Virus record (IMG/VR): IMGVR_UViG_3300042691_025398
Coordinates: 55,814-119,813 of that record
Source: a virus
Taxonomy: Duplodnaviria; Heunggongvirae; Uroviricota; Caudoviricetes
Direction: 5' to 3' (one strand)
DNA length: 64,000 bases
Shown: piece after piece, positions 38,592 through 60,009 of the stretch
Numbering within the stretch: the first letter of the stretch is position 1
Layout: each line of letters begins with the position of its first letter
Position numbers and translations under genes: made by a program
Notes under the pieces: generated by a model
What the model was told of the DNA's origin: nothing
Seen by the model: only the letters and a program-made list of their open reading frames with translations
Database searches by the model: none

Positions 38592-39881
38592 TTAATAACG
38601 GTATGTTTCTGGTTTGAAGGGACCTTGCACAGGTACATTGATGTACTCTGCTTGGGCATCAGTGAGGGTGGTAAGTTCTGCGCCCACATGTGCCAAATGA
38701 AGTCTAGCCACTTCTTCATCCATGTGCTTGGGCAGTAAATAAATCTGTCCAGGTTGATACCGGTCAGAATGTTGCCAAAGTTCAATCTGCGCCAACACCT
38801 GGTTGGTAAAACTGTTTGACATCACATAGCTTGGATGTCCTGTAGCACAGCCAAGGTTTACCAATCGTCCTTTAGCTAACACTATAATCTTAATACCGTC
38901 AGGTCGGGTAACATGATCAACCAAGGGCTTGATTTCTTGCCAATGCCACGATTGAATGCCGGCAATGTCAATCTCGCTGTCAAAGTGACCAATGTTACAC
39001 ACAATAGCATTGTTTTTCATGCGCAGCATATGATCACGATTGATCACATTGATGTTGCCTGTGGCAGTAACAAAGATATCTGCATGTTCGGCCGCATAGT
39101 CCATTGTGACCACACGATAGCCTTCCATGGCCGCTTGTAAAGCACAGATAGGGTCAATTTCAGTGATCCATACCTGTGCTGACAACGCACGTAATGCCTG
39201 AGCTGAACCCTTGCCTACATCACCATAGCCTGCTACCACAGCTATCTTGCCTGCGATCATGACATCAGTTGCACGTTTGATAGCATCAACAAGACTTTCG
39301 CGACAACCATACAGATTGTCAAACTTGGCCTTGGTCACTGAATCATTTACATTGATAGCTGGTAACTTTAGTGTGCCTGCTTGGACTCGTTCCACTAGTT
39401 TGTGAATACCAGTAGTGGTTTCCTCACTAACACCTACTATGCCAGGCAGCAGTTCTGGATGACGATCATGTACCCATGCTGTGAGATCGTGACCGTCGTC
39501 AAGCAGCATGTTGGGCAACCATCCATCAGGGCCTGACAGTGTTTGTTCAATACACCACCAGTATTCTTCTTCGGTTTCACCTTTCCATGCAAACACAGGA
39601 ATTCCACGAGCAGCTAAAGCCGCAGCCGCATGATCCTGTGTGCTGAAAATATTGCAAGAACTCCAGCGCACTTCGGCACCCAACTCAACCAAGGTTTCAA
39701 CTAGCACAGCAGTTTGAATGGTCATGTGCAAGCTGCCAGCAATGCGAGCACCTGCTAATGGTTTGGCATCACGGTATTTGTCTCGAACACTTATCAGTCC
39801 GGGCATTTCGTGTTCAGCAATGGCTATTTCTCTACGACCCCAGTCTGCTAGACCAATGTCTGCTATGCGATAATCTGTCAT
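38592..39881 (-). CDS. ahcY: S-adenosyl-L-homocysteine hydrolase
   Basis: N-terminal [26 protein letters not shown] is the canonical AhcY start. NAD-binding [10 protein letters not shown] block present. Length 429 aa. Confidence 0.9.
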
Positions 39882-40047
39882 TTATGAAAGTCCTTACGTT
39901 CGTTTCTGTTTGCTCTAGGTGGTGCCATTCTAGATTGCATTTCTGCTTGTACCATGCTGCTGATAAAATGGTGACGCTTGTTGGCATCAATAATCGTAGC
40001 GGCCTGCATTTTGCTGGGTTTGGATAGTTTAAAATGTTTGTTGGCTT

Positions 40048-40311
40048 TCATCGGCGTCCTTTGTTCCTTGAATTAGTTTCGGGCGGTTCACGCAGCAACC
40101 AGGATCTATTGACCTTGCCTGCTTGTATTTCATGCATGGTAGTGCTCAATGGTGTATTGCCTTGATTTACCATTGGTGCATGTCCGGATTTGATTTCTCT
40201 AATGCGTTGACTTAAAACTAACACAGCGTCAAACTGGTTACCCAATTTGTGCACTGTGTCCTCACTGCTTAAACTGATTGCATCTCTCTGTGGTAAATTA
40301 GACATTTTCAC
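40048..40311 (-). CDS. Hypothetical protein
   Basis: 87 aa. Confidence 0.3.
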   Translation of the reverse strand: MKMSNLPQRDAISLSSEDTVHKLGNQFDAVLVLSQRIREIKSGHAPMVNQGNTPLSTTMHEIQAGKVNRSWLLREPPETNSRNKGRR

Positions 40312-40394
40312 TCCAATTGTTTAGTTATGATTATAACACGGAAATGTCTTTCTCACAACAGATATGATAAACCCGCCACTAGGGCGGGTCAGGA

Positions 40395-42313
<1,919 letters not shown>

Positions 42314-42423
42314 CGTTGCCTTCTCCTTTAAAAATAAGCAAGAAAGTATGCACAGTCTCACCTGAGCACTGTGCAAAGGTTATTTATAACATTTTAATCA
42401 TGTGCAAAGCAAGTTTTTTGGAT

Positions 42424-42446
42424 AAAAAAAGCCCTTGCGGGCTTTT
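42424..42446 (-). terminator. Rho-independent terminator after the pstS-porin operon
   Basis: gcccgcaagggc hairpin followed by a U-run on the minus strand. Confidence 0.55.
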
Positions 42447-42487
42447 GCGGGTTACGAGTTCCCGCAGCACTCTATGCTTGTGCTCGA

Positions 42488-43897
42488 TTAGAAACTCAAT
42501 TGACCTCTTAGCATCACTGCTCGATCGCCGTTCACACGACCACCTGACGAGCCAACTGCACTGTCAAATTTGGTGTCAACATAGTTCAACAAGAAACGCA
42601 CATTATCGTTCCAGAACCAGGTCACACCATAGGTCATTGCAGTTGCACGATTGGCTTTGCCTGCTGCTACTGTGATATCACTGGCGTCAAACTCGCTGGC
42701 ACGTACACCCACTTGCCAAGCACCTGTGCCACCTGCTGTGACTGCGGTGTTTGGTTTGATCCAGTTGAACACACCATTACGATAGTTGTGATTTTCACCA
42801 GTCAGGTTGTACACTGCTTGCACATAGTTACCTTGGATTTCACGATCAACACCAGTGGTGGGATCATATTTGAAGTTGAACATTTCACCTTGTACCTTGA
42901 GAGCACGATAGGCAAATGCAGCCTCTAGTCCTTGGCGTGTGCGTTCGGTCTCACCACTTAATGCACTGCCAGTGAACCAGCCACTGTGCAATCTTGCTTC
43001 AGTGCGGCCACTTGCTGGAGTTACGCCACCTTTGATGCTGCCTTGACTGTAAGCACCGCCTAGATGCACGACCATGTCTTTGTTCTGAATGATTTCTGCA
43101 ACGTTGGTAGTTAAACGACCAATTAAATCAACACCGTCAACTGTGGCATCCTTGTTGGCACGACCACGGCTGGCTGCAAGTGCATAGGTAAAGCCCACAG
43201 CAGGCACACCATGAATCATCACACCAGTTTCTTTAGCAGGAATAAACTCACCATCAGTGTTGCCCACTAGACTGCGTTCCATGAAGTCTATATTATTAGA
43301 GCTGGTTAATTGCTCAAGACTGAATGGCATCTTGAATGTACCAAACTGCAATTGTGCAGCTGGATTGGCATCATAGTTGACCCAGAACTCATCAATGGTT
43401 GTGGAGGTTGAACCAGCGCCTACATCATTGCCAAAGTTTGCCAGCAGCTGATATTTGAAGTCCTTGGCAATTTGTCCACGAATACCAAAACGTCCACGAC
43501 GCATTTCCATGGTGTTTGCGTAAGAGTCAGTGGTTTGACCTGTAGCGTAGTCTGGGCTGTAGTTTCTATAGTCCATGTGGATACGACCAGTGAACTGAGC
43601 AGTGGTGTTTCCATCCTTGCTCTTGATGCCAAGTCCATTCTCTAGAACTGAACCATCGTTGGCCTTGCTCACACGATAGTTGTTGTTGTCGCGAATGTCT
43701 TTGTCAATTCTTGACTGGTTGAACTGTTTATTTTCTTGCTTGTCACGATAGGTTTCTAGTTTAGAATCATATTCCTTCTGTGACAGAATGCCTTTTTCTC
43801 GCAAGATATTCAGAGTATCAACATACTCATCTGCGTGTGCTGCGCCAAAACAAAAACTCAAAGCGATAGCAACACTTAGTTTTTTAAGATTTTTCAT
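42488..43897 (-). CDS. Outer-membrane porin, likely phosphate-selective (OprO/OprP-like)
   Basis: Signal peptide. Alternating beta-strand composition. C-terminal aromatic residue (…RGQLSF). Co-directional and adjacent to pstS. Confidence 0.5.
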   Translation of the reverse strand: MKNLKKLSVAIALSFCFGAAHADEYVDTLNILREKGILSQKEYDSKLETYRDKQENKQFNQSRIDKDIRDNNNYRVSKANDGSVLENGLGIKSKDGNTTAQFTGRIHMDYRNYSPDYATGQTTDSYANTMEMRRGRFGIRGQIAKDFKYQLLANFGNDVGAGSTSTTIDEFWVNYDANPAAQLQFGTFKMPFSLEQLTSSNNIDFMERSLVGNTDGEFIPAKETGVMIHGVPAVGFTYALAASRGRANKDATVDGVDLIGRLTTNVAEIIQNKDMVVHLGGAYSQGSIKGGVTPASGRTEARLHSGWFTGSALSGETERTRQGLEAAFAYRALKVQGEMFNFKYDPTTGVDREIQGNYVQAVYNLTGENHNYRNGVFNWIKPNTAVTAGGTGAWQVGVRASEFDASDITVAAGKANRATAMTYGVTWFWNDNVRFLLNYVDTKFDSAVGSSGGRVNGDRAVMLRGQLSF

Positions 43898-43906
43898 TGT
43901 TTGTCC

Positions 43907-44932
43907 TTATTTCCAAATAGGCTGACCGTCGGCACCTTTTAACTGAGCCTTCCAGTTGTCCTGTACCAATTTTACTACACTATTTGGCAAATGTACATAC
44001 TCAAGTTCTTCACTCATCTTGCTGCCATTTTTAAATGACCAATCAAAGAATTTAAGAATAGCACGACCTGTTACAGCATCCGCTTGCTGACGGTGCATGA
44101 TGATGAAACTTGCACCTGTGGCTGGCCAAGCATCTTTACCTGTTTGCCAAGTTAGCAATTGATAAAAGCCAGGAGCATTTGCCCAATCAGCACCTGCTGC
44201 TGCGGCTTTAAATGTACTGTCATCTGGTTGTACAAAGTTACCATCACGATTTTTCAATTGTGCATGGGCAATTTTGTTTTTCTTAGCGTAGGCATATTCA
44301 ATGTAACCAAACGCACCTTTGATACGCTGCACCTGTGCAGCAACACCTTCGTTGCCTTTACCGCCTACACCAGTTGGCCATTTAACTGCTGTGCCTTCGC
44401 CAACTGCTTTTTGAAAATCAGCATTGGCCTTGCTCAAATAGTTGGTCCAAATGAATGTAGTACCTGAACCATCTGCACGATGTACCACAGTGATATTCAA
44501 AGCAGGAAGACTCACACCAGGATTTAGATCTGCTATTGCACGATCATTCCATTTTGTAATTTTACCAAGGTGAATGTTGGCAATCACGTCACTGGTTAGT
44601 TTAAGTTGCCCTGCCTCGATTCCTTCAAGATTCACTACAGGCACAACGCCTCCAATGATAGCTGGGAACTGCATCAAGCCTTCTTTGTCTAGTTCTTCAA
44701 TTTTCAATGGCATGTCTGATGCGCCAAAGTCCACGGTCTTGGCCTTGATTTGACGAATACCACCACCTGATCCAATTGATTGATAATTCAGGCCAATGCC
44801 TGTGGCTGCTTTATATGATTCAGCCCATTTTGAATAGATAGGATAGGGGAAAGTTGCACCTGCTCCAGTTAAATCAGCAGCTGATGCTGAAATAGCCAAA
44901 GAAGTTGCCAATAGTGCGAGTAATTTTTTCAT
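43907..44932 (-). CDS. pstS: Periplasmic phosphate-binding protein PstS
   Basis: Signal peptide, then GAGATFPYPIYSKWAESY...GSGGGI PstS signature. Confidence 0.85.
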   Translation of the reverse strand: MKKLLALLATSLAISASAADLTGAGATFPYPIYSKWAESYKAATGIGLNYQSIGSGGGIRQIKAKTVDFGASDMPLKIEELDKEGLMQFPAIIGGVVPVVNLEGIEAGQLKLTSDVIANIHLGKITKWNDRAIADLNPGVSLPALNITVVHRADGSGTTFIWTNYLSKANADFQKAVGEGTAVKWPTGVGGKGNEGVAAQVQRIKGAFGYIEYAYAKKNKIAHAQLKNRDGNFVQPDDSTFKAAAAGADWANAPGFYQLLTWQTGKDAWPATGASFIIMHRQQADAVTGRAILKFFDWSFKNGSKMSEELEYVHLPNSVVKLVQDNWKAQLKGADGQPIWK

Positions 44933-45003
44933 ACTGTAATCTCCAATTTATGTGCAATGCACAATATATTTAAACACAGAAGTATTACAGCAGTGTTACA
45001 AAT

Positions 45004-46002
45004 TTAATGTAATTTCACCAAATTATTGCGGAAAATTTCCCAAGCAGATTCCCAGCTCCATCTGTGACTACCTTGCCATACCTGATGCCTATCCAACATG
45101 AAAGCATCTTTTACTGCTTGTTTTAGGTCAGTGTTCATACAGCCAGTGATGCCCTCATCAATCACATCTTCTGGTCCTTGACAAGGAAACGCTGCCACTG
45201 GTGTTCCACAGGCCATGGCTTCTATCATGACAATGCCAAAGGTTTCCCATTGACTAGGAAACACAAACACATCGGCATTGGCATAATATTTGGCCAAGTC
45301 AATACCAGTTTTGTATCCTGTAAAATGCACTTCGGGATACTGTTTACGATAGGTCTCCAGCATGGGGCCATCACCTACCATGATTTTTTTGTAGCCTCTA
45401 TAATCAAGCTCAAAAAATCTTTCAAGATTTTTTTCCTTGCTCACACGACTTACACACAACAGATAAGGTTCGTGTGAGCTATTTCTATGCCCTGGATGAA
45501 AAATCTCACGATCTACACCGCGTGTCCATGAAATAATTTCGCCATCAAAACCATGTTCCTTCAATTCTTTAACCATGGTGTCTGTGGTAGTTAAAACCTT
45601 ACCCGAGTGTTTGTGAAACCATCGCACTAAAGGCCAAGTAACTGCTTCAGGGATACCAAACAGTTTTCTAAGTCCTTCTGGAAACTTAGTATGATAAGCA
45701 GTGTTGTACCTATAATTGTGTTTGTCAAGATATTGTCTAACACGCAGACCCAAAGGACCTTCGGTGGCGATATGGATATGATCCGGATTGATCTCCTCAA
45801 GTATCTCGCCCACTTTCCTGGGAAAGGCAATCTTGACTTCGTTGTAGCCAGGGCAACTAACATAGCTGAACCGCCCGGGATCAAGATATACAACACGATA
45901 GTTGTCCCGAACCGCAAGCGTCTCAATATTCTTATAGGTCGTAACCACACCATTGATCTGCTCCGGTAAATTGTCTGTGACTATTAAAATTGTTTTTTGC
46001 AT
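45004..46002 (-). CDS. Glycosyltransferase family 1 (GT4-like)
   Basis: C-terminal E-x7-E type region FPSQWETFGIVMIEAMACGTPVAA. Confidence 0.75.
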   Translation of the reverse strand: MQKTILIVTDNLPEQINGVVTTYKNIETLAVRDNYRVVYLDPGRFSYVSCPGYNEVKIAFPRKVGEILEEINPDHIHIATEGPLGLRVRQYLDKHNYRYNTAYHTKFPEGLRKLFGIPEAVTWPLVRWFHKHSGKVLTTTDTMVKELKEHGFDGEIISWTRGVDREIFHPGHRNSSHEPYLLCVSRVSKEKNLERFFELDYRGYKKIMVGDGPMLETYRKQYPEVHFTGYKTGIDLAKYYANADVFVFPSQWETFGIVMIEAMACGTPVAAFPCQGPEDVIDEGITGCMNTDLKQAVKDAFMLDRHQVWQGSHRWSWESAWEIFRNNLVKLH

Positions 46003-46098
46003 TCTGCTACCACCTTAAAGGATTCAAATTTTACCCAATATGCGAGACTGCTTTTTGCACGTTCGCATGCCTGCTGAGTTTCAAACTCCATTTGCACC

Positions 46099-46932
46099 CT
46101 AGCCGGAATGTCTTTTGGATCGTTTAGGTGCACTGCTATCAATATCATCAACCACACTGTCGCTCTCCTGAGTCCAGCTTATGATTTCCCACGTCCCATT
46201 GTGATGTTCAACCAAGGCTGTGCAACTTTCAACCCAGTCACCATCGTTCATATATGTAACACCGTCTATTTCTTTGATTTCAGCATGATGTATGTGTCCG
46301 CATATCACGCCGTCAAAGCCACGCTTCTTACAATATGCGGCTAGATTTCGTTCAAACTGGAATATAAAGTCTATTGCTCTTTTGACTCTATGCTTGAGGA
46401 AAAAAGAAAGGCTCCAATAGCCAAAACCAAGCCTATGGCGCAACCAATTAAATCTGCTGTTAAGGCCAAGAATGAAATCGTATGCTTTATCTCCTAATAT
46501 ACTAAGCCAAGGCGCCAGTCTTGTAATACCATCAAACAAGTCACCGTGGGTAACCAGATAATGTTTGCCATCTGCTCCAATGTGTTCGCATTGGTTGGTC
46601 ATTTCTATCATGCCAAAGTTTAGATTGTAATTTAAAAATGGTCTTAGAAATTCATCATGGTTGCCTAGAACGTAAATCACTCGAGTGTCTCGTTTGGCAT
46701 GTCCTAGTACACGGCGCACCACATTGGTATGACTCTGTTTCCAACGCCATTTGTTCTGCTTGATTTTCCAAGCATCGATGATGTCGCCCACGAGATACAA
46801 TGTTTGGCAGGAGTTGTGTTTGAGAAAATTGTTGAGTTGTTCAGCCTTGCAGTCCTTGGTACCTAGGTGAACGTCGGATATAAAAATTGTGCGATAGGTT
46901 TTCATTTTATTTTTATTTAAACACAGTAACAT
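46099..46932 (-). CDS. Calcineurin-like metallophosphoesterase (LpxH-like)
   Basis: ISDVHLG ... LVGDIIDAW ... GNHD ... GHIH motifs. Confidence 0.6.
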   Translation of the reverse strand: MLLCLNKNKMKTYRTIFISDVHLGTKDCKAEQLNNFLKHNSCQTLYLVGDIIDAWKIKQNKWRWKQSHTNVVRRVLGHAKRDTRVIYVLGNHDEFLRPFLNYNLNFGMIEMTNQCEHIGADGKHYLVTHGDLFDGITRLAPWLSILGDKAYDFILGLNSRFNWLRHRLGFGYWSLSFFLKHRVKRAIDFIFQFERNLAAYCKKRGFDGVICGHIHHAEIKEIDGVTYMNDGDWVESCTALVEHHNGTWEIISWTQESDSVVDDIDSSAPKRSKRHSG

Positions 46933-46965
46933 TACAATCCTATTACAATTTTGAAAATATTTTCA

Positions 46966-47290
46966 TGAAAAAGCCCGCCGAAGCGGGCTTACTATTTTGG
47001 GTGACAAGGCATAGTTGCCTCGGAGGTTAGGCTGCTAGAGCGAAAACCTCGTCGTTAGCTGCGTTTGCAGTTACTATTTTGCTTGGATTACGTCCATCGC
47101 CTTTCGTGTTGCCTTCTCTACTATCTCACCCTGTCGAAACCTTGACTGGCCCATCAAAAGCATACTTGGAAGATTTATTAACCGCTGACTCTTACTCTTC
47201 CCCAGCGTCACTATAGTATGCTTTTGGTGGACCAGGCGGGAGTCGAACCCGCGTCCAGAATGCCTTCGCTTTGAAGGAATTACAACAATA
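46966..47290 (-). ncRNA. ssrA: Circularly permuted (two-piece) tmRNA
   Basis: The tRNA-like 3' end GGACGCGGGTTCGACTCCCGCCTGGTCCACCA (reverse complement of 47225-47260) lies upstream of the coding piece. The coding piece starts GGGCCAGTCAAGGTTTCGACAGGG at about 47153 and carries the tag reading frame ..GCAAACGCAGCTAACGACGAGGTTTTCGCTCTAGCAGCCTAA (ANAANDEVFALAA*). A terminator hairpin lies at 46968-46990. The 5' boundary is approximate. Confidence 0.7.
46968..46990 (-). terminator. Rho-independent terminator of tmRNA
   Basis: aagcccgcttcggcgggctt hairpin plus U-run on the minus strand. Confidence 0.6.
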
Positions 47291-47648
47291 CTTGAATTTT
47301 ACATTTATTTTTGCAGCATGTCAAATTACTCAACCTAGTATTAATCTTCATCTATTTTATGATGGTAAGTTTCATACCATAGTGCAAATAACACACCAAG
47401 CAAGCATCCCGTAAATATGGATCCTAAAAGAACTCCAATGATAAAATACAATTGTTCTGTGCCCATTGTTATTTTTCTACCAATCTTTGTTCACAACGAG
47501 CTTGAATTTTATCTTCTCTGTGATGAATCAATACTGGCAGTATTTCTTCACATTCTTCTCTGCGAGCAAAAGATTTCCAATCACGCCATTCGCCATCTGC
47601 TGCTACTAAAACAACAAGAACCCAGACGTATGATCCCACATAAGTTTC

Positions 47649-48622: not shown

Positions 48623-49093
48623 TCAATATTTAATCTCGGGCAGGCTGTACAACACAAAGTTGTGCACCACCGGATTGTATCTAATCTTGAACACACAAAC
48701 ACCTGGTTCGTCTAGGTATCCATAAGTGCGTTTTACGCCACCGGACTTCAAACGATACACAGAATAATGATCTAAATCCGCCAAAGGCTCGTTATCCAAT
48801 TCCACACGTTCCACTATCACAGCACTTTCATGATCTGATCTTTCAAGAATTTCTATTCCAATCTGTGAGATTGATCTGGGGTCATGTTCAAAATCAAAAC
48901 GTTCTGTGTCTATGTTGACTTTTTCTCGATAGACATAGTCTCCGAGAATCAACCATTTGACGTTCTCGGGGGTGCCCTTATATTTTACGTAAAACGAAAG
49001 TTTTTGCAAGTTTTTTGGCTTGGACATATTGATCATAAACCTCTTGTTGTTCACGCAACATGCGCTCGGCCTCTTGGCCATCTCTATCACCAA
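48623..49093 (-). CDS. Hypothetical protein (start uncertain because it overlaps the upstream gene)
   Basis: 156 aa ORF. Overlaps the end of the B12-radical-SAM gene by about 115 nt, so an internal start is likely. Confidence 0.3.
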   Translation of the reverse strand: MVIEMAKRPSACCVNNKRFMINMSKPKNLQKLSFYVKYKGTPENVKWLILGDYVYREKVNIDTERFDFEHDPRSISQIGIEILERSDHESAVIVERVELDNEPLADLDHYSVYRLKSGGVKRTYGYLDEPGVCVFKIRYNPVVHNFVLYSLPEIKY

Positions 49094-50525
49094 AGCCCAA
49101 TTCGTGCTGTAGCTCTAGAAATCTTTTATATCTATTGAATCGAGTTTGATAGTTGTTGTCTGGATTGGTTGGAGTGTTCCAAAAGATATGACTCCATCCC
49201 TTGACCACATGCTCTCGCTCAAATTGATAATGATCACGCAGTCGATCGTCATTGGTCAGTGGCACTTGATCGCCTAGAGTGAACGGACTGGATATGCTCA
49301 CACTCAACAGTCCATCATGTGCCCAATGCCGATATCGGCGCAGTAGATCCAGTGTTTGTTCAAAATCTTGTTCAGTCTCCATGGGATAGCCGGCCATGAA
49401 CAACCAAATTTGCTTTATACCATTGTCATGTAACTGATGTGCAGTATAATCAATGTCAGCGTTGCTGAATTTTTTACGCATGTCATAGCGCACACGCTCG
49501 CTTCCGCTCTCAACTCCAATTATCCATTCCTGACATCCAGCTTCAGCCGCAAGAGCAAAATCTCTAGGCGGTTGATTTTCTCGTCCGCGAAAGATAGCGT
49601 AGCCACTGTAACGCAAGGTTCTTGGCAAATGATCAGCCAGATATTGATTCATTTTACGATAGTTTGGTATACTACCGTTTATCAAGTTACCGCTGAATCT
49701 AAAAAAGTCAATGCCTGTGCGTTCATGGCTTGCAATCATCTCTTTGGCCAGCAGTTCTCCGTCTTTGAATATGTACTTGGGCCATAGATGTTCCACATCG
49801 CAAAATGTACAGCGACGTACACAACCTTTGCTGTCAGTGATCAAGAGATACCTGTCACCAGGATTGAATCTTTGGTAAAGATCAAAATCATAATTGTGCC
49901 AGTCTGGAATAGGCACTGCATTGAGATCCGCGGAAGTCTGCGGAGGTGAATCAACCAGTCCATACATGTCCTGTTTAATCACATCAATGATAAAGCTTTC
50001 AGCATCGCCTGTAACCGCACAGTCAATCATGCCGCGTTCTACCAACCAACGAGCTCTTGAACCTGTGGCGTGTGTATCACCGGTGTACTCACCTTGAGTC
50101 AAGATTTCTAGACCACGGCCACCTGCTAGAATCTTCACACCAGGCAACCAACGTCTAATGCTATAACACATGAGTGTGAGATAGGTTTCACTCATGACAC
50201 TGAACACACTTAGACCAATCACTTCTGGATCAAACCGATCTCGGATGGCCAGCAGTTGTTTACGGTTCCATTTTAAAATGTCTATGAGTACTCTTCTTGG
50301 CAGCTTGCGTTCATTGCTGGGACCTTGACTGATATAAAACAGCAGTTCAGGCCAGTATGGTTTATCAATAAATTCCGCAGTGAATTCTGCCGCAAGGTCT
50401 ACTGGCACAGCAGCAATGCCTGCTTGATTAAGACAGGAACTGAGCAGTGCAGGAGCAGTGGCTGGCCAACCCGGAGTCTGATATGGCAAGCTGACTATTA
50501 CAATGTGTCGCTTGTCACTGGTCAT
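48978..50525 (-). CDS. Cobalamin-binding-domain radical SAM enzyme (class B-like)
   Basis: N-terminal Rossmann-like B12-binding region (HIVIVSLPYQ...) and radical SAM CX3CX2C (GCVRRCTFCDV). 515 aa. Confidence 0.6.
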   Translation of the reverse strand: MTSDKRHIVIVSLPYQTPGWPATAPALLSSCLNQAGIAAVPVDLAAEFTAEFIDKPYWPELLFYISQGPSNERKLPRRVLIDILKWNRKQLLAIRDRFDPEVIGLSVFSVMSETYLTLMCYSIRRWLPGVKILAGGRGLEILTQGEYTGDTHATGSRARWLVERGMIDCAVTGDAESFIIDVIKQDMYGLVDSPPQTSADLNAVPIPDWHNYDFDLYQRFNPGDRYLLITDSKGCVRRCTFCDVEHLWPKYIFKDGELLAKEMIASHERTGIDFFRFSGNLINGSIPNYRKMNQYLADHLPRTLRYSGYAIFRGRENQPPRDFALAAEAGCQEWIIGVESGSERVRYDMRKKFSNADIDYTAHQLHDNGIKQIWLFMAGYPMETEQDFEQTLDLLRRYRHWAHDGLLSVSISSPFTLGDQVPLTNDDRLRDHYQFEREHVVKGWSHIFWNTPTNPDNNYQTRFNRYKRFLELQHELGFGDRDGQEAERMLREQQEVYDQYVQAKKLAKTFVLRKI

Positions 50526-53574: not shown

Positions 53575-53652
53575 TGGTACCCCCTCTCCGATTCGAACGG
53601 AGAAAACTGCTCCTTTTGAGAGAGCCGACTTTACCAATTTGTCCAAGGGGGC
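53575..53652 (-). tRNA. tRNA, anticodon CAA but short variable arm (atypical), CCA encoded
   Basis: Cloverleaf. Acceptor GCCCCCT/AGGGGGT. Anticodon stem GCTCT/GGAGC. Loop CTCAAAA. T-loop TTCGAAT. Confidence 0.55.
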
Positions 53653-53654
53653 AT

Positions 53655-53733
53655 TGGTCTCTCTGGCTGGATTCGAACCAGCGATCTCTGGTCCCCCAGA
53701 CCAGCACTCTAGACCAGACTGAGCCACAGAGAG
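53655..53733 (-). tRNA. tRNA-Pro (GGG)
   Basis: Anticodon stem CTGGT/ACCAG. Loop CTGGGGG. T-loop TTCGAAT. CCA encoded. Confidence 0.6.
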
Positions 53734-53734
53734 A

Positions 53735-54109
53735 TTAACGTAAACATCTAGCTCGTGCTTCGATCATGTGATCAACATTGCCTTTAACCACTACATTGGT
53801 ATAGGTATCAACAGTGCCACTAGCATGATCATACACTCGGTTATCCACTGCATGATAGGTACGCACACGTTCGTCACTGGCACGATAGCGTTCGGTGTCT
53901 TTGTGAAAGTGCCGCTCTACTCTAGCGCGACACACTGCTAGCGCATTTTTTCGATTGTCTTCTCTGCTGCGACTAGCAGTGCCATTGGCCTGTATGCCTG
54001 TGGGTTCATGGATACAACGGCAACAATTCTGATGTTTGTTTCGATGTTGACCACCACCACCGGTGCTGGAGAACCATTCAAATCTAAATTGGTCTTCTGT
54101 GATTTTCAT
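53735..54109 (-). CDS. arfB: ArfB-like peptidyl-tRNA hydrolase (GGQ motif, RF-1 domain protein)
   Basis: FSSTGGGGQHRNKHQNCCRCIHEPTGIQANG...SRSREDNRKNA parallels the release-factor/ArfB GGQ catalytic loop (GPGGQHVNKT..AVRLTH.PTGI...ERSQ..N). Basic C-terminal tail. Start trimmed to the internal Met MKITEDQF. The ORF track extends to 54211. Confidence 0.65.
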   Translation of the reverse strand: MKITEDQFRFEWFSSTGGGGQHRNKHQNCCRCIHEPTGIQANGTASRSREDNRKNALAVCRARVERHFHKDTERYRASDERVRTYHAVDNRVYDHASGTVDTYTNVVVKGNVDHMIEARARCLR

Positions 54110-54384
54110 TATAGATTCCTCATGCTCAACAGCAGTGCAGTTAAGTATTTTTCTTCTCGAAATGCAATAAAATGTCTGTGATCTTTCTTGGGCATGGTGT
54201 ACCATCCCCATACAGGATTTTGTATTCTATCCTGATTCCAGATAGACCAACCTTCGCCATGCTCCCAATATAATTTGTGACGCAGCTCTACAGATTTTAT
54301 CACTTCCCAACGCCAGGTTAATGCATAGATTAATCCTGCACGACCCAATTGATATCTTTTGTCTAGCTTGATAATCTTCATCAC
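54109..54384 (-). CDS. Hypothetical protein
   Basis: 91 aa. Its stop overlaps the arfB-like start. Confidence 0.3.
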   Translation of the reverse strand: MMKIIKLDKRYQLGRAGLIYALTWRWEVIKSVELRHKLYWEHGEGWSIWNQDRIQNPVWGWYTMPKKDHRHFIAFREEKYLTALLLSMRNL

Positions 54385-54395
54385 TTCCTCTATCT

Positions 54396-54480
54396 TGGTG
54401 CGACTAGCCGGAATCGAACCAGCACGACCGAAGTCGGGAGATTTTAAGTCTCCTGTGTCTACCTATTTCACCATAGTCGC
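54396..54480 (-). tRNA. tRNA-Leu (UAA), type II
   Basis: Anticodon loop CTTAAAA. Long variable arm. CCA encoded. Confidence 0.7.
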
Positions 54481-54485
54481 ATGTT

Positions 54486-54562
54486 TGGTGCGCCAGAGGG
54501 GAGTCGAACCCCTAAAATCCAGTTTCTAAGACTGACACGTATACCAGTTCCGTCACCGGCGC
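54486..54562 (-). tRNA. tRNA with anticodon UAG and short variable arm (atypical)
   Basis: Anticodon stem TCAGT/ACTGG. Loop CTTAGAA. T-arm AGGGG-TTCGACT-CCCCT. CCA encoded. Confidence 0.55.
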
Positions 54563-54568
54563 AATGTT

Positions 54569-54644
54569 TGGTGCCAACTCCCGGGATCGAACCAGGTTCC
54601 ATGCGTCTTCAGCGCACCGCAATGACCACATTTGCTAAGTTGGC
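54569..54644 (-). tRNA. tRNA-Phe (GAA)
   Basis: Loop CTGAAGA. T-loop TTCGATC. CCA encoded. Confidence 0.65.
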
Positions 54645-54645
54645 T

Positions 54646-54720
54646 TGGTGCATCGTGAGAGGGTTGAACTCCCGACCTTGGCCTTGTAAGGGCCCTGCTC
54701 TACCACTGAGCTAACGATGC
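54646..54720 (-). tRNA. tRNA-Val (UAC)
   Basis: Loop CTTACAA. Acceptor GCATCGT/ACGATGC. CCA encoded. Confidence 0.6.
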
Positions 54721-54724
54721 AGAA

Positions 54725-54958
54725 TTATTTCCAAGTGAGCACAAACAAACAACGATCTTTATCCCATTTGAATGCAACACCTAGATGATAGTATTCACCA
54801 CTATCGTTCCATGCCCATGAAGCATGATGTGAACCAACATGACGCTCTAGCCAGGACTGCACAAGATCTACACCTTGTATCCAATCCAGCTGAGGTAAAG
54901 AAGCAGTTGGCCACGGTATAGTGGCAGTATAGACAAAAGCATGTCGATCAACCAGCAT
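54725..54958 (-). CDS. Hypothetical small protein
   Basis: 77 aa ORF between tRNAs. Confidence 0.3.
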   Translation of the reverse strand: MLVDRHAFVYTATIPWPTASLPQLDWIQGVDLVQSWLERHVGSHHASWAWNDSGEYYHLGVAFKWDKDRCLFVLTWK

Positions 54959-54970
54959 GCTTGTATTTAA

Positions 54971-55049
54971 TGGTCTCGAAGGTGGGATTCGAACTCACGA
55001 TCTCCTGCTCCCAAAGCAGGCGCTTTAAGCCAGACTAAGCTACTCCGAG
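54971..55049 (-). tRNA. tRNA-Pro (UGG)
   Basis: Anticodon stem CCTGC/GCAGG. Loop TTTGGGA. Confidence 0.6.
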
Positions 55050-55132
55050 ATTAACTGTTTTGATGTATGTGATACAGAAATAAAAATACCATTACGATAA
55101 CTATGATTGCCCCATGATAGTTCTCCTTGTAT

Positions 55133-55207
55133 TGGTAGGGGATGAGGGACTCGAACCCCCGCATGGCGGAATCAAAATCCGCTGCCTTACCAACTTGGCG
55201 AATCCCC
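55133..55207 (-). tRNA. tRNA-Gln (UUG)
   Basis: Stem GCGGA/TCCGC. Loop TTTTGAT. Confidence 0.65.
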
Positions 55208-55215
55208 AACTGCTC

Positions 55216-55290
55216 TGGCCCGACCGGCAGGAATCGAACCCACATTCTGGAGGTAGAAGCTCCATGTCCTATCCATTGAACGACGGTCGG
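55216..55290 (-). tRNA. tRNA-Arg (UCU)
   Basis: Stem TGGAG/CTCCA. Loop CTTCTAC. Confidence 0.65.
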
Positions 55291-55364
55291 TTAAATCGAG
55301 AAGTCTTGACCTTGTGTTAAACATGATTCAGTGGCCTAACAACAGCGGGACAAGACATATTACT

Positions 55365-55440
55365 TGGAGCGGGTGAACAGGTTCGAACTGTCGACATTCT
55401 GCTTGGAAGGCAGACGCTCTACCAACTGAGCTACACCCGC
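55365..55440 (-). tRNA. tRNA-Gly (UCC)
   Basis: Stem TCTGC/GCAGA. Loop CTTCCAA. Confidence 0.65.
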
Positions 55441-55447
55441 ATTACTC

Positions 55448-55522
55448 TGGAGCGGATAGTCAGGTTCGAACTGACGACCTACACGTTGGCAACGTGTCGC
55501 ACTACCACTGTGCTATATCCGC
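55448..55522 (-). tRNA. tRNA-Gly (GCC)
   Basis: Stem ACACG/CGTGT. Loop TTGCCAA. Confidence 0.65.
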
Positions 55523-55528
55523 TTATAT

Positions 55529-55996
55529 CTACAATGCACCATTGGCTATTCGGTCTGCTGCATAACTTGCAGCAAATGCCCGAGGTTTCACCAAGGGAAT
55601 CACATTACATGTGCCACGAATGTAACCAATAGCTTGACTGATCACACAGCTAGAACCATGCTCTTCATTGGGGTTGATATCCAAGTGCACTTCTACTGGA
55701 AAGTCTCCCATGATTGGTGCTAGACGTTGAAACATGTCACTCACACGATACACTTCATTCATCAATCGCATGGCTGGCTTACTGGCCTTTTGATCGTAAT
55801 CGCGTTCCTTGGTGATTTCACCAAAGATTTTACAACCATTGTTGCCATTCACATGCACTACCACTGCCACGGTGTATTCTGCAAACCATACACCTTTTTC
55901 TCTAAATCGCACACTGTCTGCGCCAAGATAAACTTTTGTACCCGGACCGCAGTTGTCGATATATTGTTTTACTTCATGTAAGTTTATCTTAGGCAT
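55529..55996 (-). CDS. Hypothetical protein within the tRNA array
   Basis: 155 aa ORF. No confident motif. Confidence 0.35.
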   Translation of the reverse strand: MPKINLHEVKQYIDNCGPGTKVYLGADSVRFREKGVWFAEYTVAVVVHVNGNNGCKIFGEITKERDYDQKASKPAMRLMNEVYRVSDMFQRLAPIMGDFPVEVHLDINPNEEHGSSCVISQAIGYIRGTCNVIPLVKPRAFAASYAADRIANGAL

Positions 55997-56003
55997 TGTT
56001 TCC

Positions 56004-56078
56004 TCTCTTGGTTGGCCGGTCCGGAGAGATTCGAACTCCCGACAGCTGGTTTCGAAGACCAGAACTCTTCCGCTGAGC
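56004..56078 (-). tRNA. tRNA-Arg (UCG)
   Basis: Stem CTGGT/ACCAG. Loop CTTCGAA. Confidence 0.65.
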
Positions 56079-56085
56079 TACGGAC

Positions 56086-56173
56086 CGAATTTTTTGGCGG
56101 AGAGTATAGGATTCGAACCTATGCGCCCATTTCTGAACGACAGTTTAGCAAACTGCTGCCTTAACCACTCGGC
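56086..56173 (-). tRNA. tRNA-Ser (GCU), type II
   Basis: Loop TTGCTAA. Long variable arm. Confidence 0.65.
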
Positions 56174-56219
56174 CAACTCTCCATTTGTTTTATTTTACTA
56201 CGATGATCATTATTGATCA

Positions 56220-56293
56220 AGAATTACTTGGTGCCCCCTGACAGAATCGAACTGCCAATCCCGGGTTACAAAGCCGGTGTTATACCATTTAAC
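56220..56293 (-). tRNA. tRNA-Thr (UGU)
   Basis: Loop TTTGTAA. Confidence 0.55.
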
Positions 56294-56299
56294 TAAGGG

Positions 56300-56389
56300 G
56301 GCAAAAACTGGCGGAAGCGGTGAGATTCGAACTCACGGAGCATTTCTACTCGTCTGTTTTCAAGACAGGTGCAATCAACCGGACTCTGC
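56300..56389 (-). tRNA. tRNA-Ser (UGA), type II
   Basis: Loop CTTGAAA. Long variable arm. Confidence 0.6.
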
Positions 56390-56398
56390 CACACTTCC

Positions 56399-56605
56399 TT
56401 AACTGGGAATTATTTTTGGAATATAGGGTACATTGCGCGGCCCATGCCGCTGTTCGAATAACTGTCGTGCTTCGGTTAGATCTCGAGCATACACTCGATC
56501 TTTTACTTCACCTTGCGGTGTTCTTACTGTGGTTTCATACATTGGCATCATAATCTCCTTTGGTGCTGATGGTGGGGATTGAACCCACGGCTTCCGCCTT
56601 ACCAA
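56399..56605 (-). CDS. Hypothetical small protein
   Basis: 68 aa ORF between tRNAs. Confidence 0.3.
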   Translation of the reverse strand: MVRRKPWVQSPPSAPKEIMMPMYETTVRTPQGEVKDRVYARDLTEARQLFEQRHGPRNVPYIPKIIPS

Positions 56606-56635
56606 GGCGGTACTCTACCACTGAGTTACATCAGC
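56561..56635 (-). tRNA. tRNA-Thr (GGU)
   Basis: Stem CCGCC/GGCGG. Loop TTGGTAA. Confidence 0.65.
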
Positions 56636-56636
56636 A

Positions 56637-56711
56637 TGGTGGTGATAATTGGTAATGATCCAATCTCCTCGCCTTATGAAGGCGGTGCGCATCCATCTAC
56701 GCCATATCACC
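56637..56711 (-). tRNA. tRNA-Met/Ile2 (CAU)
   Basis: Loop TTCATAA. Unusual T-loop ATCATTA. Confidence 0.5.
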
Positions 56712-56717
56712 AGAATT

Positions 56718-56792
56718 TGGTAGCGAGTAGTGGGATTGAACCACTGACCAATGCGTTATCAACACACTGCTCTTCCGCTGAGCTAACTCGCC
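56718..56792 (-). tRNA. tRNA-Ile (GAU)
   Basis: Loop TTGATAA. Confidence 0.6.
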
Positions 56793-56794
56793 AT

Positions 56795-56868
56795 TGGCGC
56801 CGGAGGAGGGAATCGAACCCCCACTAACGGTTTTGGAGACCGCCGCACTGCCATTATACTACTCCGAC
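56795..56868 (-). tRNA. tRNA-Trp (CCA)
   Basis: Stem GCGGT/ACCGT. Loop CTCCAAA. Confidence 0.6.
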
Positions 56869-56884
56869 TTTAAACTATGTTAAT

Positions 56885-56962
56885 TGGAGCATCGGGCTGG
56901 ATTCGAACCAGCGAATCGAAGGTTTTGCAGACCCCGCCATTAGGCCTCTCTGGTACCGATGC
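56885..56962 (-). tRNA. tRNA-Cys (GCA) (tentative)
   Basis: Loop CTGCAAA. T-loop TTCGAAT. Confidence 0.5.
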
Positions 56963-56965
56963 ATG

Positions 56966-57259
56966 TTAATCTTCTTCGTCGTCAAACTCACCTGAGTTAT
57001 GACAATAGCCTTTCAATGTACCTACGAGCATTTCTCGATCTGTGATTACAAACACATTGTATTCACTCCGACGAAAAGGTTTCATTTTAGGAGGTGGTCG
57101 ACGACTATCTGTATCATAAGGCAAAGGTTCAACTTTGACATTACCTGAATCTTCGTATGTCTGTGCCACACGCCCTATGATAATTCTATTGTTATGACAG
57201 GTCAATACAGTGGAACCTGTTTGAATAGTTGTTCCTAAAATGTCTTTTAAGCCTGTCAC
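56966..57259 (-). CDS. Hypothetical protein
   Basis: 97 aa. Confidence 0.3.
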   Translation of the reverse strand: MTGLKDILGTTIQTGSTVLTCHNNRIIIGRVAQTYEDSGNVKVEPLPYDTDSRRPPPKMKPFRRSEYNVFVITDREMLVGTLKGYCHNSGEFDDEED

Positions 57260-57287
57260 AAAACCTCCATTAAAGTTTTGGTTATGT

Positions 57288-57363
57288 TGGGGTGACTGAA
57301 GGGAGTCGAACCCTCACTGTACGGAATCACAATCCGGGGCACTACCATTATGCTACAGTCACC
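57288..57363 (-). tRNA. tRNA-His (GUG)
   Basis: Loop TTGTGAT. Extra 5' G(-1). C73 discriminator. Confidence 0.65.
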
Positions 57364-57364
57364 A

Positions 57365-57629
57365 TCAAATTTTGTCAAGTGGAATTTCTTTCACTGGACT
57401 GTCAATTTTGCTCTCTACTACAAAGACATCAAACATTGTGTCATCTTCTGGATGACATATTTCTTCTAAAAAAGTTTCATTAAACTTTGTACGCCAGTGT
57501 AGAAATTTCTGTTTGTCAGCATCCCACCTGGCCACACTGGCATTGCGACATCTTCCTGCATAATATGCACCATGCTCAAGTTCAGACTTGGCAATTTTAG
57601 AAGTGTAATTGTATGGACTATGAATCATA
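57365..57629 (-). CDS. Hypothetical protein (trimmed so it does not overlap tRNA-Ala)
   Basis: The ORF track extends to 57832, through the tRNA at 57645-57720. The internal start MIHSPYNY avoids the overlap. Confidence 0.3.
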
Positions 57630-57644
57630 ACATTTCCTTGTAAG

Positions 57645-57720
57645 TGGTGGAGGTTATCGGACTCGAACCGATCACCCTCTGCTTGCAAAGCAGATGCTCT
57701 CCCAGATGAGCTAAACCCCC
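57645..57720 (-). tRNA. tRNA-Ala (UGC)
   Basis: Loop TTTGCAA. G3:U70 identity pair in the acceptor GGGGGTT/AACCTCC. Confidence 0.7.
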
Positions 57721-58211
57721 GTTTGAATAATTGTACGCAATTGATCAAGACTTTGATCAACATCACCATGGTGTAATATACCATGACCTCCGGCTGCCTG
57801 CCATTGCTCGATGTTGCTGCGACGGTCATCAATCAAGATATCACCAGGCCGAGCCCAAAGCTGTTTGTCATGACTGTAAGGACCAAACCAGATGGGTATG
57901 TCACCAAAATGTCTTTGCTTCCATGTGACCTTGTCCTGGAATGCCCAGGGAAAATCATTGTCTTGTGGCACAGCAGTTAAGAATCTAACATCTCGGTTGG
58001 TTTGATCTGCAAGATCCAACACTGTGGCTACCAAGCGCCTGGCATCAGGCATTAGTGGCAAGTCACGATAAAATCTTGGAAAGGCACGTAACTTGATCCA
58101 GTCATGATCCGGCCAACGTTCATTGGCCGAATGACTGCGTCCAATAATCTTTGATGCTTCTGCATCAAAGTCGGCTACCACACCATCCATGTCTAGATAG
58201 ATTGTTTGCAT
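57711..58211 (-). CDS. HAD-superfamily 5'(3')-nucleotidase-like hydrolase
   Basis: IYLDMDGVVADF motif I. 166 aa. The 3' end overlaps the tRNA-Ala 5' end by about 10 nt. Confidence 0.5.
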   Translation of the reverse strand: MQTIYLDMDGVVADFDAEASKIIGRSHSANERWPDHDWIKLRAFPRFYRDLPLMPDARRLVATVLDLADQTNRDVRFLTAVPQDNDFPWAFQDKVTWKQRHFGDIPIWFGPYSHDKQLWARPGDILIDDRRSNIEQWQAAGGHGILHHGDVDQSLDQLRTIIQTGV

Positions 58212-58225
58212 ACTTTCCTTTTGAT

Positions 58226-58301
58226 TGGCTCCAGCGGTTGGGATCGAACCAACGACAAACGGATTAACAGTCCGCTGCTTCTACCTCTGAGCTACGCTGG
58301 A
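58226..58301 (-). tRNA. tRNA-Asn (GUU)
   Basis: Loop CTGTTAA. Confidence 0.65.
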
Positions 58302-58308
58302 ATTGATT

Positions 58309-58401
58309 TGGTGGGTGTCCACGGATTCGAACCGCGAATGTTTACCACGAGGGACCGGATTTACAGTCCGGTGTAGCACACGCCATAGCTACAAGACACC
58401 C
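58309..58401 (-). tRNA. tRNA-Tyr (GUA), type II
   Basis: Loop CTGTAAA. Long variable arm. Confidence 0.65.
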
Positions 58402-58406
58402 AAATA

Positions 58407-58772
58407 TTATTTTTTCATTGCTTCCATGTCGGCCAGCAAGCTGGCCCACTGAATCTCTGGATTTGCACCTTTATCGAATCCATGCAAGGCCACAAGAGTT
58501 TGATCTGCACCTTCTGGTACTTTGAAATAGATGCTGGCATAGGTACAGTCAAAGTCGTCGTCTGTGTCATGTGAATACCAGGGATGACTTGTTACCCATG
58601 CAGGAAAATAATCTTCCCGATTGCCGCCACCATTGCGGGTGTAAACTACAATGTAGCCATCTTCCATGTAGACATTTCTAAAACGACCAAAATCCGCACG
58701 AGTGGCGCCAAGAATTTCCAATAAACGATCAGTGTCTGGGTTCATACCGAACACAGTGTTGTACAAGCTCAT
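58407..58772 (-). CDS. Hypothetical protein
   Basis: 121 aa. Confidence 0.3.
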   Translation of the reverse strand: MSLYNTVFGMNPDTDRLLEILGATRADFGRFRNVYMEDGYIVVYTRNGGGNREDYFPAWVTSHPWYSHDTDDDFDCTYASIYFKVPEGADQTLVALHGFDKGANPEIQWASLLADMEAMKK

Positions 58773-58790
58773 GTTGCCTCCAGATTGCTG

Positions 58791-59204
58791 TTATTTGAGA
58801 TCTTTGGAATCCACACAGGTGCCGCCTTTGAACACATAGATATCTGAGTCTATGCGGATTTGTTCAAACACGTGATTGTTCACACAAATATATGGATCTT
58901 TGTAATTTTGAGTCCAAGAATACACTCCAAAACCTATACCAGCCAGCACCATGAGTATGGGAATATACTTTAGATACTTTACTATTTCTGGCATCGCACT
59001 CAGTATTTGAGGCAGATTTTTGAGCAATTCTTTCATGCTCTTATTTACTACTTTTGGCGGTCCCAAGGGGTAACGATCCCCTTCTTTCAGCGTGACAGGC
59101 TGATGTGCGTCCATGAACACTTTGGAACCTGTGTCTGGTGCTCTGCGTCCCGCGGCGGTAATTATAGTCTGTAGTAACACCCACCGACCCTCCACCCGCT
59201 CCAC
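58791..59204 (-). CDS. Hypothetical membrane protein (start uncertain)
   Basis: 137 aa. A hydrophobic segment. The 5' part lies in a GC-rich spacer that may be non-coding. Confidence 0.3.
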   Translation of the reverse strand: MERVEGRWVLLQTIITAAGRRAPDTGSKVFMDAHQPVTLKEGDRYPLGPPKVVNKSMKELLKNLPQILSAMPEIVKYLKYIPILMVLAGIGFGVYSWTQNYKDPYICVNNHVFEQIRIDSDIYVFKGGTCVDSKDLK

Positions 59205-59318
59205 AACCGGGACCGTTCTCGCATTGCCAGCGCACTTTCGGTTTGAAGTGTACCACCCGTGCTTGTCAAGGCACTTCTCATCCTCCGGGTCAGAGTATCC
59301 AGTGACGCTGGAACGTTT

Positions 59319-59394
59319 GGTACACCGTACGGGATTCGAACCCGTCTTTACGCCTTGAAAGGGCGTTGTCCTAACCGGATAGACGAACGGTGCA
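59319..59394 (-). tRNA. tRNA-Glu (UUC)
   Basis: Stem ACGCC/GGCGT. Loop CTTTCAA. Confidence 0.65.
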
Positions 59395-59773: not shown

Positions 59774-59824
59774 ATTGTTTTGCAATATTTCTAGTGTAAC
59801 AAAAAGAATTTTATTGGTCAACCA

Positions 59825-59969: not shown

Positions 59970-60009
59970 TTATCTTATCACTCTTGTCACTGTCCATGAT
60001 GGACTCTCC

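Follow-up and report, generated by a model that had tools for sequence, protein, structure and literature searches.

The window analysed here is a stretch of 64,000 nucleotides from a virus of the Caudoviricetes (positions 55,814 to 119,813 of the IMG/VR virus record IMGVR_UViG_3300042691_025398), and it carries on its minus strand a complete circularly permuted two-piece ssrA gene, the gene for transfer-messenger RNA (tmRNA), of the betaproteobacterial type. A preliminary description, made from the letters alone, had placed a phage-encoded permuted tmRNA at 46966-47290. This interval spans the transcribed gene, whose promoter lies just upstream (47324-47296), and the sequence elements quoted in that description are all found on the minus strand, with GGACGCGGGTTCGACTCCCGCCTGGTCCACCA at 47256-47225 and GGGCCAGTCAAGGTTTCGACAGGG at 47152-47129. 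Two independent gene detectors, ARAGORN and the Rfam covariance models, were applied to the window. ARAGORN calls a permuted tmRNA ('tmRNA*') at 46936-47317 on the minus strand with the tag ANAANDEVFALAA. The Rfam model RF01850 (beta_tmRNA) aligns over its full length (model positions 1-331) to 47338-46966 with 163.2 bits against a gathering score of 84 (E = 1.5e-50), and RF04321 (tmRNA_permuted) aligns to 47287-47027 (model positions 1-213) with 141.8 bits against a gathering score of 47 (E = 7.4e-28). These scores are far beyond chance. In Rfam, beta_tmRNA belongs to one clan with the models for standard, alpha and cyanobacterial tmRNA, of which only the best-scoring one is reported. Because beta_tmRNA is that best-scoring member, we assign the gene to the betaproteobacterial type, a third type and not the alphaproteobacterial or marine cyanobacterial one to which its gene order had at first been compared. 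ARAGORN, Rfam, the covariation among relatives and the viral gene context agree that this is a phage-borne, circularly permuted two-piece tmRNA.

Read in the direction of transcription, the gene opens with a sigma-70-like promoter (47296-47324, minus strand) composed of TTGACA (47324-47319), a 17-nt spacer and TAAAAT (47301-47296). The promoter scan matches 11 of 12 consensus positions, and the acceptor piece starts 8 nt after the end of the promoter. It falls on the promoter columns of the Rfam beta_tmRNA alignment. Among our comparison loci, which bear L numbers (mostly IMG/VR viral contigs, with L001 being phage XacN1, AP018399, and L134-L253 being bacterial genome loci), the same TTGACA-17-TAAAAT arrangement stands upstream of the tmRNA gene in the syntenic L125 and L122, and a similar one in L009 and L123. 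The acceptor piece of about 63 nt follows (47225-47287, minus strand), its probable 5' end being placed from the promoter and from the start of the tmRNA_permuted alignment at 47287. It contains the 5' strands of P2 (UGUUG, 47287-47283, and CAUUCUG, 47262-47256), a T arm with a GGUUCGA-type loop (47252-47236), the acceptor 3' strand CUGGUCC (47235-47229), the discriminator A (47228) and an encoded CCA (47227-47225).

An intervening segment of 72 nt (47153-47224, minus strand) separates the two pieces. Its perfect 10-bp basal stem, AAAGCAUACU/AGUAUGCUUU, stacks beneath the acceptor stem and forms in the minimum free energy (MFE) fold, and a near-invariant UGAU leader lies between this stem and G1. 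The conserved stem and leader would fit the processing of a precursor. The coding piece of about 185 nt (46966-47152, minus strand), as delimited by the Rfam alignments, begins with G1 at 47152, and the order is thus permuted: the CCA at 47227-47225 precedes G1 by 72 nt on the same strand. Its acceptor 5' strand GGGCCAG (47152-47146) pairs with CUGGUCC over 7 bp, as had been expected from the letters, and the third pair is the G:U pair G3:U70. A G3:U70 pair in the acceptor stem is an alanine identity element. Beyond it lie the invariant GGUUUCGAC, an analogue of the D loop (47141-47133), and the 3' strands of P2 (47133-47127 and 47111-47107).

The mRNA-like part comes next. Upstream of the resume codon stands a putative pseudoknot, PK1 (47084-47107, minus strand), drawn here from sequence and alignment with P3 as ACG/CGU and P4 as UGGA/UCCA. 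The tag open reading frame (ORF; 47027-47068, minus strand) runs from the resume codon GCA (47068-47066) to the stop codon TAA (47029-47027). Its 13 codons at 47068-47030, which include no AUG start, are GCA AAC GCA GCT AAC GAC GAG GTT TTC GCT CTA GCA GCC. Both the DEVFALAA end with UAA and the terminator after it were located where they had been described. Between the two lies a 3' H-type pseudoknot (46991-47021, minus strand), recognized from the beta_tmRNA alignment and from covariation, with stems S1 (GAGGC/GCCUU, 47021-47017 with 47010-47006) and S2 (ACUAU/AUAGU, 47015-47011 with 46995-46991) and a loop, GUCACCCAAA, that matches the beta_tmRNA consensus CCUUGuuACcaAA. The gene closes with the intrinsic terminator GCCCGC-UUCG-GCGGGC followed by UUUUU (46968-46988, minus strand); the terminator scan has a hairpin at the same site, which it lists on the plus strand. 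Promoter and terminator bracket a precursor of about 320 nt. Folding, which the preliminary description had suggested as a check, bears out part of the structure: in the MFE fold of the precursor (-107 kcal/mol, z = -2.9) the T arm and the acceptor stem form, as do the intervening stem and the terminator, whereas the long-range P2 and the pseudoknots do not form in a single-sequence MFE fold, a limit of the method that we do not count against the structure.

Relatives are abundant in IMG/VR. The degenerate pattern 'T loop, CCA, 60-90 nt, GGTTTCGAC' retrieves at least 120 loci, an exact search with the 5' 24-mer adds 17 further stretches, and ARAGORN makes a permuted-tmRNA call in about 128 of the 133 loci fetched. 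For covariation we used 104 distinct aligned sequences and counted pairs for the specified structure. Across this set the acceptor stem and T arm are paired in every case, G3:U70 occurs in 104 of 104 sequences and GGTTTCGAC is invariant. In P2a (7 bp; 98.9% paired) 6 of the 7 pairs show both-sided changes, distal P2 (5 bp) is 95.2% paired, and the intervening stem is paired at 86-92% and has both-sided changes at all ten of its pairs. The overall covariation score is 0.463, compared with 0.166 for shuffled alignments (0 of 500 reach the observed value) and at most 0.093 when partners are slid. PK1 pairing is lower family-wide (63-73%) because several PK1 architectures coexist, and among relatives with the architecture of the window P4 covaries clearly: UGGA:UCCA in the window becomes CGGA:UCCG in L044, AGGA:UCCU in L010, CUGA:UCAG in L125 and CUGC:GCAG in L024. 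For the 3' part, 19 sequences were compared. S1 of the pseudoknot is 95.8% paired and S2 84.2%, with four of the five S2 pairs changed on both sides, while the terminator stem is 82.5% paired with both-sided changes at 5 of 6 pairs; pseudoknot and terminator together score 0.463 against 0.202. The tag frame and its ALAA end are also kept, as in ANAANDEIFALAA (L125), ATAANDEIFALAA (L122) and ANAANDEVYALAA (L022). Judged from the covariation across relatives and from the kept tag frame and ALAA end, the RNA is under selection for the full tmRNA structure and is no fragment.

Separately, the search revealed a long-tag subfamily of phage permuted tmRNAs, whose tags of 28-31 residues (for example, ANANTFDFSAMSFTGNTVRGAANESRFALAA) have the ANA start of the window's tag and end in FALAA or VALAA. 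Its members include L008, L018, L026, L057, L064, L068, L071, L080, L098 and L126-L131.

The identities of the window gene to its nearest relatives are distributed unevenly along its length. Compared with L008, the acceptor piece is 94%, the intervening segment 93% and the 5' coding part 87% identical. Compared with L125, the tag ORF is 97.6% and the 3' part 96.8% identical, whereas the 5' parts of L125 agree with the window far less well (acceptor piece 77%, intervening segment 55%, 5' coding part 79%). Segments of the tmRNA are 91-97% identical to those of relatives whose flanking genes are just 73-80% identical. By these comparisons the tmRNA gene is a mosaic, its 5' half matching one lineage (L008/L068) and its tag and 3' half another (L125/L122). 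L125 and L122 are without the LpxH-like and GT4 genes (46932-45004) that separate the tmRNA gene from the PstS-like gene in the window.

We conclude that the window belongs to the large genome of an uncultured phage that is myophage-like and jumbo-phage-like. On the same strand, 6.3 kb upstream of the tmRNA gene, 28 tRNA genes (53575-59968, minus strand; ARAGORN and Rfam tRNA matches) together cover all 20 amino acids in a single-copy array interspersed with phage ORFs. With about 50% identity, the exonuclease at 62845-63867 resembles those of the jumbo phage PA5oct, of 350-kb Erwinia, Yersinia and Serratia phages and of XaC1, and the protein at 4281-5663 has matches among the virion and baseplate proteins of PA5oct and among proteins of Atu_ph07 and Phosso. 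The gene order of the window is matched by IMG/VR contigs, among them L125 (a 136-kb contig with amino-acid identities of 91% for GroEL and 80% for the porin). L122 has the tRNA array in common with the window, and related tmRNAs are located on IMG/VR contigs of 355-383 kb. Searches of cultured-phage DNA with the gene and with a 20-kb stretch around it found no close relative, the only matches being one of 82 nt to XacN1 and those to tRNAs.

Not every neighbour looks viral, and one might suppose that the window is a bacterial chromosome, a large plasmid or a chimeric assembly, in which case the tmRNA would be a host gene. The host-like gene block at 38592-46932 (minus strand; Pfam and NCBIfam matches) encodes SAH hydrolase, an RNA polymerase omega-like protein, GroEL, GroES, a phosphate-selective porin O/P, a phosphate-binding protein of the PstS kind, a GT4 glycosyltransferase and an LpxH-like phosphoesterase. 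Such cellular-looking genes (GroES/GroEL, PstS, phosphate porin, SAH hydrolase, LpxH-like) speak for this view, as does the fact that large plasmid-like elements carry similar translation genes (Al-Shayeb et al., PMC7162821). However, jumbo phages have the nearest counterparts of the virion- and baseplate-type proteins and of the exonuclease, phage ORFs are interspersed in the single-copy array of 28 tRNAs, the gene order is common to the window and IMG/VR viral contigs, and no smpB was found in the window, in contrast to bacterial ssrA loci. Furthermore, the same genes recur on contigs of several independent metagenomes, with an identical LpxH-like protein sequence on contigs of several JGI and ENA metagenomes. 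We therefore regard a bacterial origin as highly improbable. The host-like block points to a part in the phosphate uptake and the envelope functions of a Gram-negative host, and a host of this kind is what the porin, PstS-like and LpxH-like genes would suggest.

The same context bears on whether the gene works at all. tmRNA genes are frequent integration sites and fragments of them occur in prophages (PMC4383910, PMC9004378), which might make the window copy an attP-type remnant left by a temperate element. Temperate elements that insert into the tmRNA gene of a host bring along part of that gene, by which it is restored. However, the gene has its full length between promoter and terminator, the window ORFs that were scanned yielded no integrase domain, and the position of the gene is conserved across many related viral contigs. 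Jumbo phages that are myophage-like and have a large tRNA array are also typically virulent. Because the gene is complete, an integrase was not found among the ORFs scanned and the position is conserved among viral contigs, we give an integration remnant hardly any credence.

A functional tmRNA needs partners. SmpB was absent from the Pfam scans of the window ORFs scanned, and a tblastn search with an E. coli SmpB query found no match in the whole window or in the 132 viral tmRNA loci. As a positive control, the same query finds smpB beside 106 bacterial ssrA loci among the matches listed. Given that no smpB was found in the window or the viral loci, the phage tmRNA probably uses the SmpB of its host, and most likely also the host's alanyl-tRNA synthetase (AlaRS), EF-Tu, RNase P and proteases. 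As smpB was found beside none of the 132 viral loci, it can be cleanly predicted that phage tmRNAs depend on the SmpB of the host. The earlier suggestion that the phage manipulates trans-translation is a plausible inference, and no smpB or other dedicated partner was found next to the gene.

Considering these observations together, we think it probable that this is a complete, independently transcribed permuted ssrA gene of the beta type, belonging to a large tRNA-rich phage and working in trans-translation. Transcription from its own strong sigma-70-type promoter to the intrinsic terminator would give the precursor of about 320 nt, which host RNase P would cut 5' of G1 (47152) and in which host 3' processing would expose the CCA (47225). 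The intervening hairpin would thereby be released, leaving a base-paired two-piece RNA of about 63 nt and about 185 nt. After charging with alanine by host AlaRS, the RNA would be brought by host SmpB and EF-Tu to ribosomes that have run to the 3' end of a broken message and stalled there, and translation would resume at GCA (47068), add ANAANDEVFALAA and terminate at UAA. The ALAA-ended product would then go to host proteases of the ClpXP type. For the phage, the likely benefit would be the recycling of ribosomes and amino acids while infection degrades host mRNA and tRNA, and the tmRNA gene would form part of one translation-support module with the 28 tRNAs. Published alternatives for the role of phage tmRNA are the sensing of host state and the selective tagging of host proteins. 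The structure and the signals can be read directly from the locus; processing, charging and tagging we infer from the two-piece tmRNA of Caulobacter and from trans-translation in general.

A different use of the same RNA would be as a decoy or inhibitor that titrates host SmpB (or AlaRS or EF-Tu) and shuts down host trans-translation. A decoy role has been proposed for the tmRNA of mycobacteriophage DS6A, which consists of the tRNA-like domain only, and molecules restricted to that domain are reported as tmRNA inhibitors (PMC4131195, PMC11915505). With no phage smpB found beside the gene, the RNA must indeed compete for host SmpB. For such a purpose, however, the tRNA-like domain alone would suffice, whereas the window gene keeps the resume region, an intact 13-codon ALAA tag, PK1, the 3' pseudoknot and the stop codon, and these covary across the phage family. 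Because the whole mRNA-like half is conserved, we consider a decoy unlikely.

Several points nevertheless weigh against a gene working in trans-translation as we propose. The middle helix of P2, CCUUC:GAAGG, which joins the two pieces and is perfect in the window, is only 55% paired family-wide, and a local hairpin within the acceptor piece is an equal alternative to it. P3 of the window's PK1 has 3 bp, when many relatives have 4-5 bp. Every step after transcription is a predicted one, and the benefit to the phage is a conjecture. Finally, the window is part of a genome, and a phage smpB is possible outside it.

Other features of the window might also touch on translation. Inside the tRNA array, a 158-codon ORF (53735-54211, minus strand) encodes a small GGQ-domain protein that matches the Pfam family RF-1 (E = 1.4e-14). 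It aligns to the C-terminal third of RF1 (approximately residues 205-345) and thus to its GGQ peptidyl-tRNA hydrolase domain and C-terminal part, and is without the codon-recognition domains. Against RF1 chains of the PDB its GGGGQ aligns on AGGQ, and its matches to the NCBIfam models prfA, prfB and prfH are partial. A homologue with 36% identity abuts the tmRNA gene in L123, a 363-kb viral contig. We considered ArfB as an identity and did not file the protein there, given that it aligns to domains 3-4 of RF1 and has no obvious basic tail of the ArfB type. It may be a codon-independent ribosome-release factor, possibly one that is linked by function to the tmRNA.

Beyond the array, at 60633-60697 (minus strand), sequence, fold and covariation define a hairpin cassette in which an 18-bp stem lies beneath a nearly invariant 27-nt top, CUAAGAGUCCAGGUUCAGAGCGUGGCA (fold -27.2 kcal/mol, z = -4.6). 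The 18-nt core of this cassette occurs in 53 IMG/VR contigs, and in the stem, which is 93.6% paired, 11 pairs show both-sided changes. The surroundings of the cassette are distinctive: in 15 of 55 copies the core is preceded, at exactly 19 nt, by the CCA end of a tRNA, and a tRNA starts no more than 45 nt after the core in 16 copies, mostly at 21-22 nt. Six copies lie inside permuted tmRNA genes according to ARAGORN, and by sequence context the cassette constitutes the intervening segment in eight (L106, L292, L265, L301, L302, L263, L260 and L280). In three contigs (L286, L293 and L272) it directly follows a GOLLD RNA, and another copy is found at L122 2603-2665. At a permissive threshold, no known Rfam family matches the cassette or the stretch 59970-61540. 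From these positions the cassette looks like a portable element at the junctions between a CCA and the next 5' end in phage stable-RNA arrays, and it appears to be undescribed so far.

The cassette lies within an ORF-poor stretch of about 1.57 kb (59970-61540) that adjoins the tRNA array. Two blocks in it, 61485-60876 and 60476-60258, are 76-77% identical to blocks of L122 that are adjacent to each other there, and the window has the cassette and its flanks between them. The stretch could be a non-coding RNA region.

A broader reading, which we offer tentatively and as a possibility that we would not presently favour, is that the beta-type permuted tmRNAs of large aquatic and soil phages are a modular, recombining family maintained by phages, with the intervening segment as an exchangeable slot for cassettes, and are not recent pick-ups from hosts. 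If this were true, the cassette would serve phage stable-RNA arrays as a dedicated element for end processing, or would be a small RNA released from them.

The window also has a run of large paralogous radical-SAM/SPASM proteins at 9769-18438, in which the five proteins scanned match radical-SAM models; the run includes two further ORFs of similar size at 15921-18438. Nearer to the tmRNA gene, 48978-50525 encodes a protein resembling B12-binding radical-SAM methyltransferases.

The stakes of the window gene itself are modest: it is a well-supported and fully dissected example of a phage-borne two-piece tmRNA. More broadly, phage genes of this kind are abundant in viral metagenomes, a single pattern having yielded at least 120 loci. 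The mosaic construction of the tmRNA, the truncated GGQ protein and the hairpin cassette may outweigh the tmRNA in worth.

What the gene says of its host can be judged by comparison with tmRNAs elsewhere. The 5' 24-mer GGGCCAGTCAAGGTTTCGACAGGG is identical in many one-piece tmRNAs of Lachnospiraceae, a family of the Firmicutes, with smpB next to ssrA (L134-L253, among the matches listed). We considered this 24-mer as a diagnostic of host or lineage and rejected it: ARAGORN shows the Lachnospiraceae matches listed to be ordinary one-piece tmRNAs, and a sequence common to the tmRNAs of very distant lineages is not lineage-diagnostic. Xanthomonas stands outside the former Betaproteobacteria and its own ssrA is one-piece. 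Because XacN1, the phage of a non-betaproteobacterial host, carries the same tmRNA type as the window, the type is a weak host marker. The marine phage Melnitz likewise has a tmRNA of the alpha type in a host that is not alphaproteobacterial, the type mismatching the host (PMC9004378). The hint at host range raised in the preliminary description thus exists but is weak. Taken together, XacN1, Melnitz and the common 24-mer imply that the permuted type tracks the lineage of the phage at least as much as that of the host, and tmRNA type alone, given XacN1 and Melnitz, is unfit for host prediction.

Among bacterial forms, the nearest known system is the betaproteobacterial-type two-piece tmRNA, the 'third lineage' of Sharkady and Williams (2004) as cited in PMC9004378; what we say of this lineage draws on the Rfam model and on papers that cite theirs. 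The window gene shares with the RF01850 type the permuted order, the position of the promoter, the tRNA-like domain, P2, a single putative PK1 before the tag, a tag of the AN(D/E)E.FALAA kind, and one 3' pseudoknot with the loop CCUUGU.ACC.AA followed by a terminator. It differs in being carried by a phage, where the model type is carried by bacteria, in its acceptor stem (GGGCCAG/CUGGUCC against the consensus GGGggUG/CAccUCC), in the three extra N-terminal residues of its tag (ANA-ANDEVFALAA) and in the short P3 of its PK1.

Among phages, XacN1 offers the closest parallel, as a tRNA-rich jumbo phage with a permuted tmRNA of the beta type (beta_tmRNA, 107.8 bits), a tag of the form ANAN...ALAA and an acceptor piece that is 81% identical to that of the window. 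Its intervening segment has 114 nt, in contrast to 72 nt in the window, and its tag is ANANTFDYALAA (ARAGORN). Directly upstream, in place of a sigma-70 promoter, it has a tRNA-like T arm, and a GOLLD RNA stands alongside: the permuted tmRNA and the GOLLD RNA (227 bits) lie side by side in the tRNA region of XacN1 at 2976-3396 and 4345-4758. Neither is annotated in the GenBank record AP018399 or mentioned in the paper on the phage, an example of phage permuted tmRNAs being missed by annotation pipelines. The XacN1 tmRNA is, however, entered as 'Permuted' in Table S1 of PMC9004378.

Marine phages, namely the Methylophilales phage Melnitz, pelagimyophages and cyanophages, likewise carry complete permuted ssrA genes that were found with ARAGORN (PMC9004378), and Pelagibacter phage Mosig has a protein with 49% identity to the LpxH-like neighbour in the window. 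The Melnitz tmRNA differs in its alphaproteobacterial type and in the glutamine riboswitch in its 3' domain, whereas an Rfam scan of the window detected no riboswitch family. Lists of phage tmRNAs go back to 2014 (Hudson et al. 2014, PMC4131195), and huge phages have tmRNA genes, at times together with one for SmpB (Al-Shayeb et al. 2020, PMC7162821). The tmRNAs of huge phages and mycobacteriophages are mostly unpermuted, and some huge phages encode an SmpB, which was not found in the window; they resemble the window gene in placing a tmRNA within a phage translation toolkit beside many tRNAs (PMC7162821, PMC4131195). Buchholz et al. (2022, PMC9004378) counted 53 two-piece forms, mostly aquatic, among 133 unique phage tmRNAs. 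Two-piece tmRNAs of phages are thus already published, and the window gene adds one more example.

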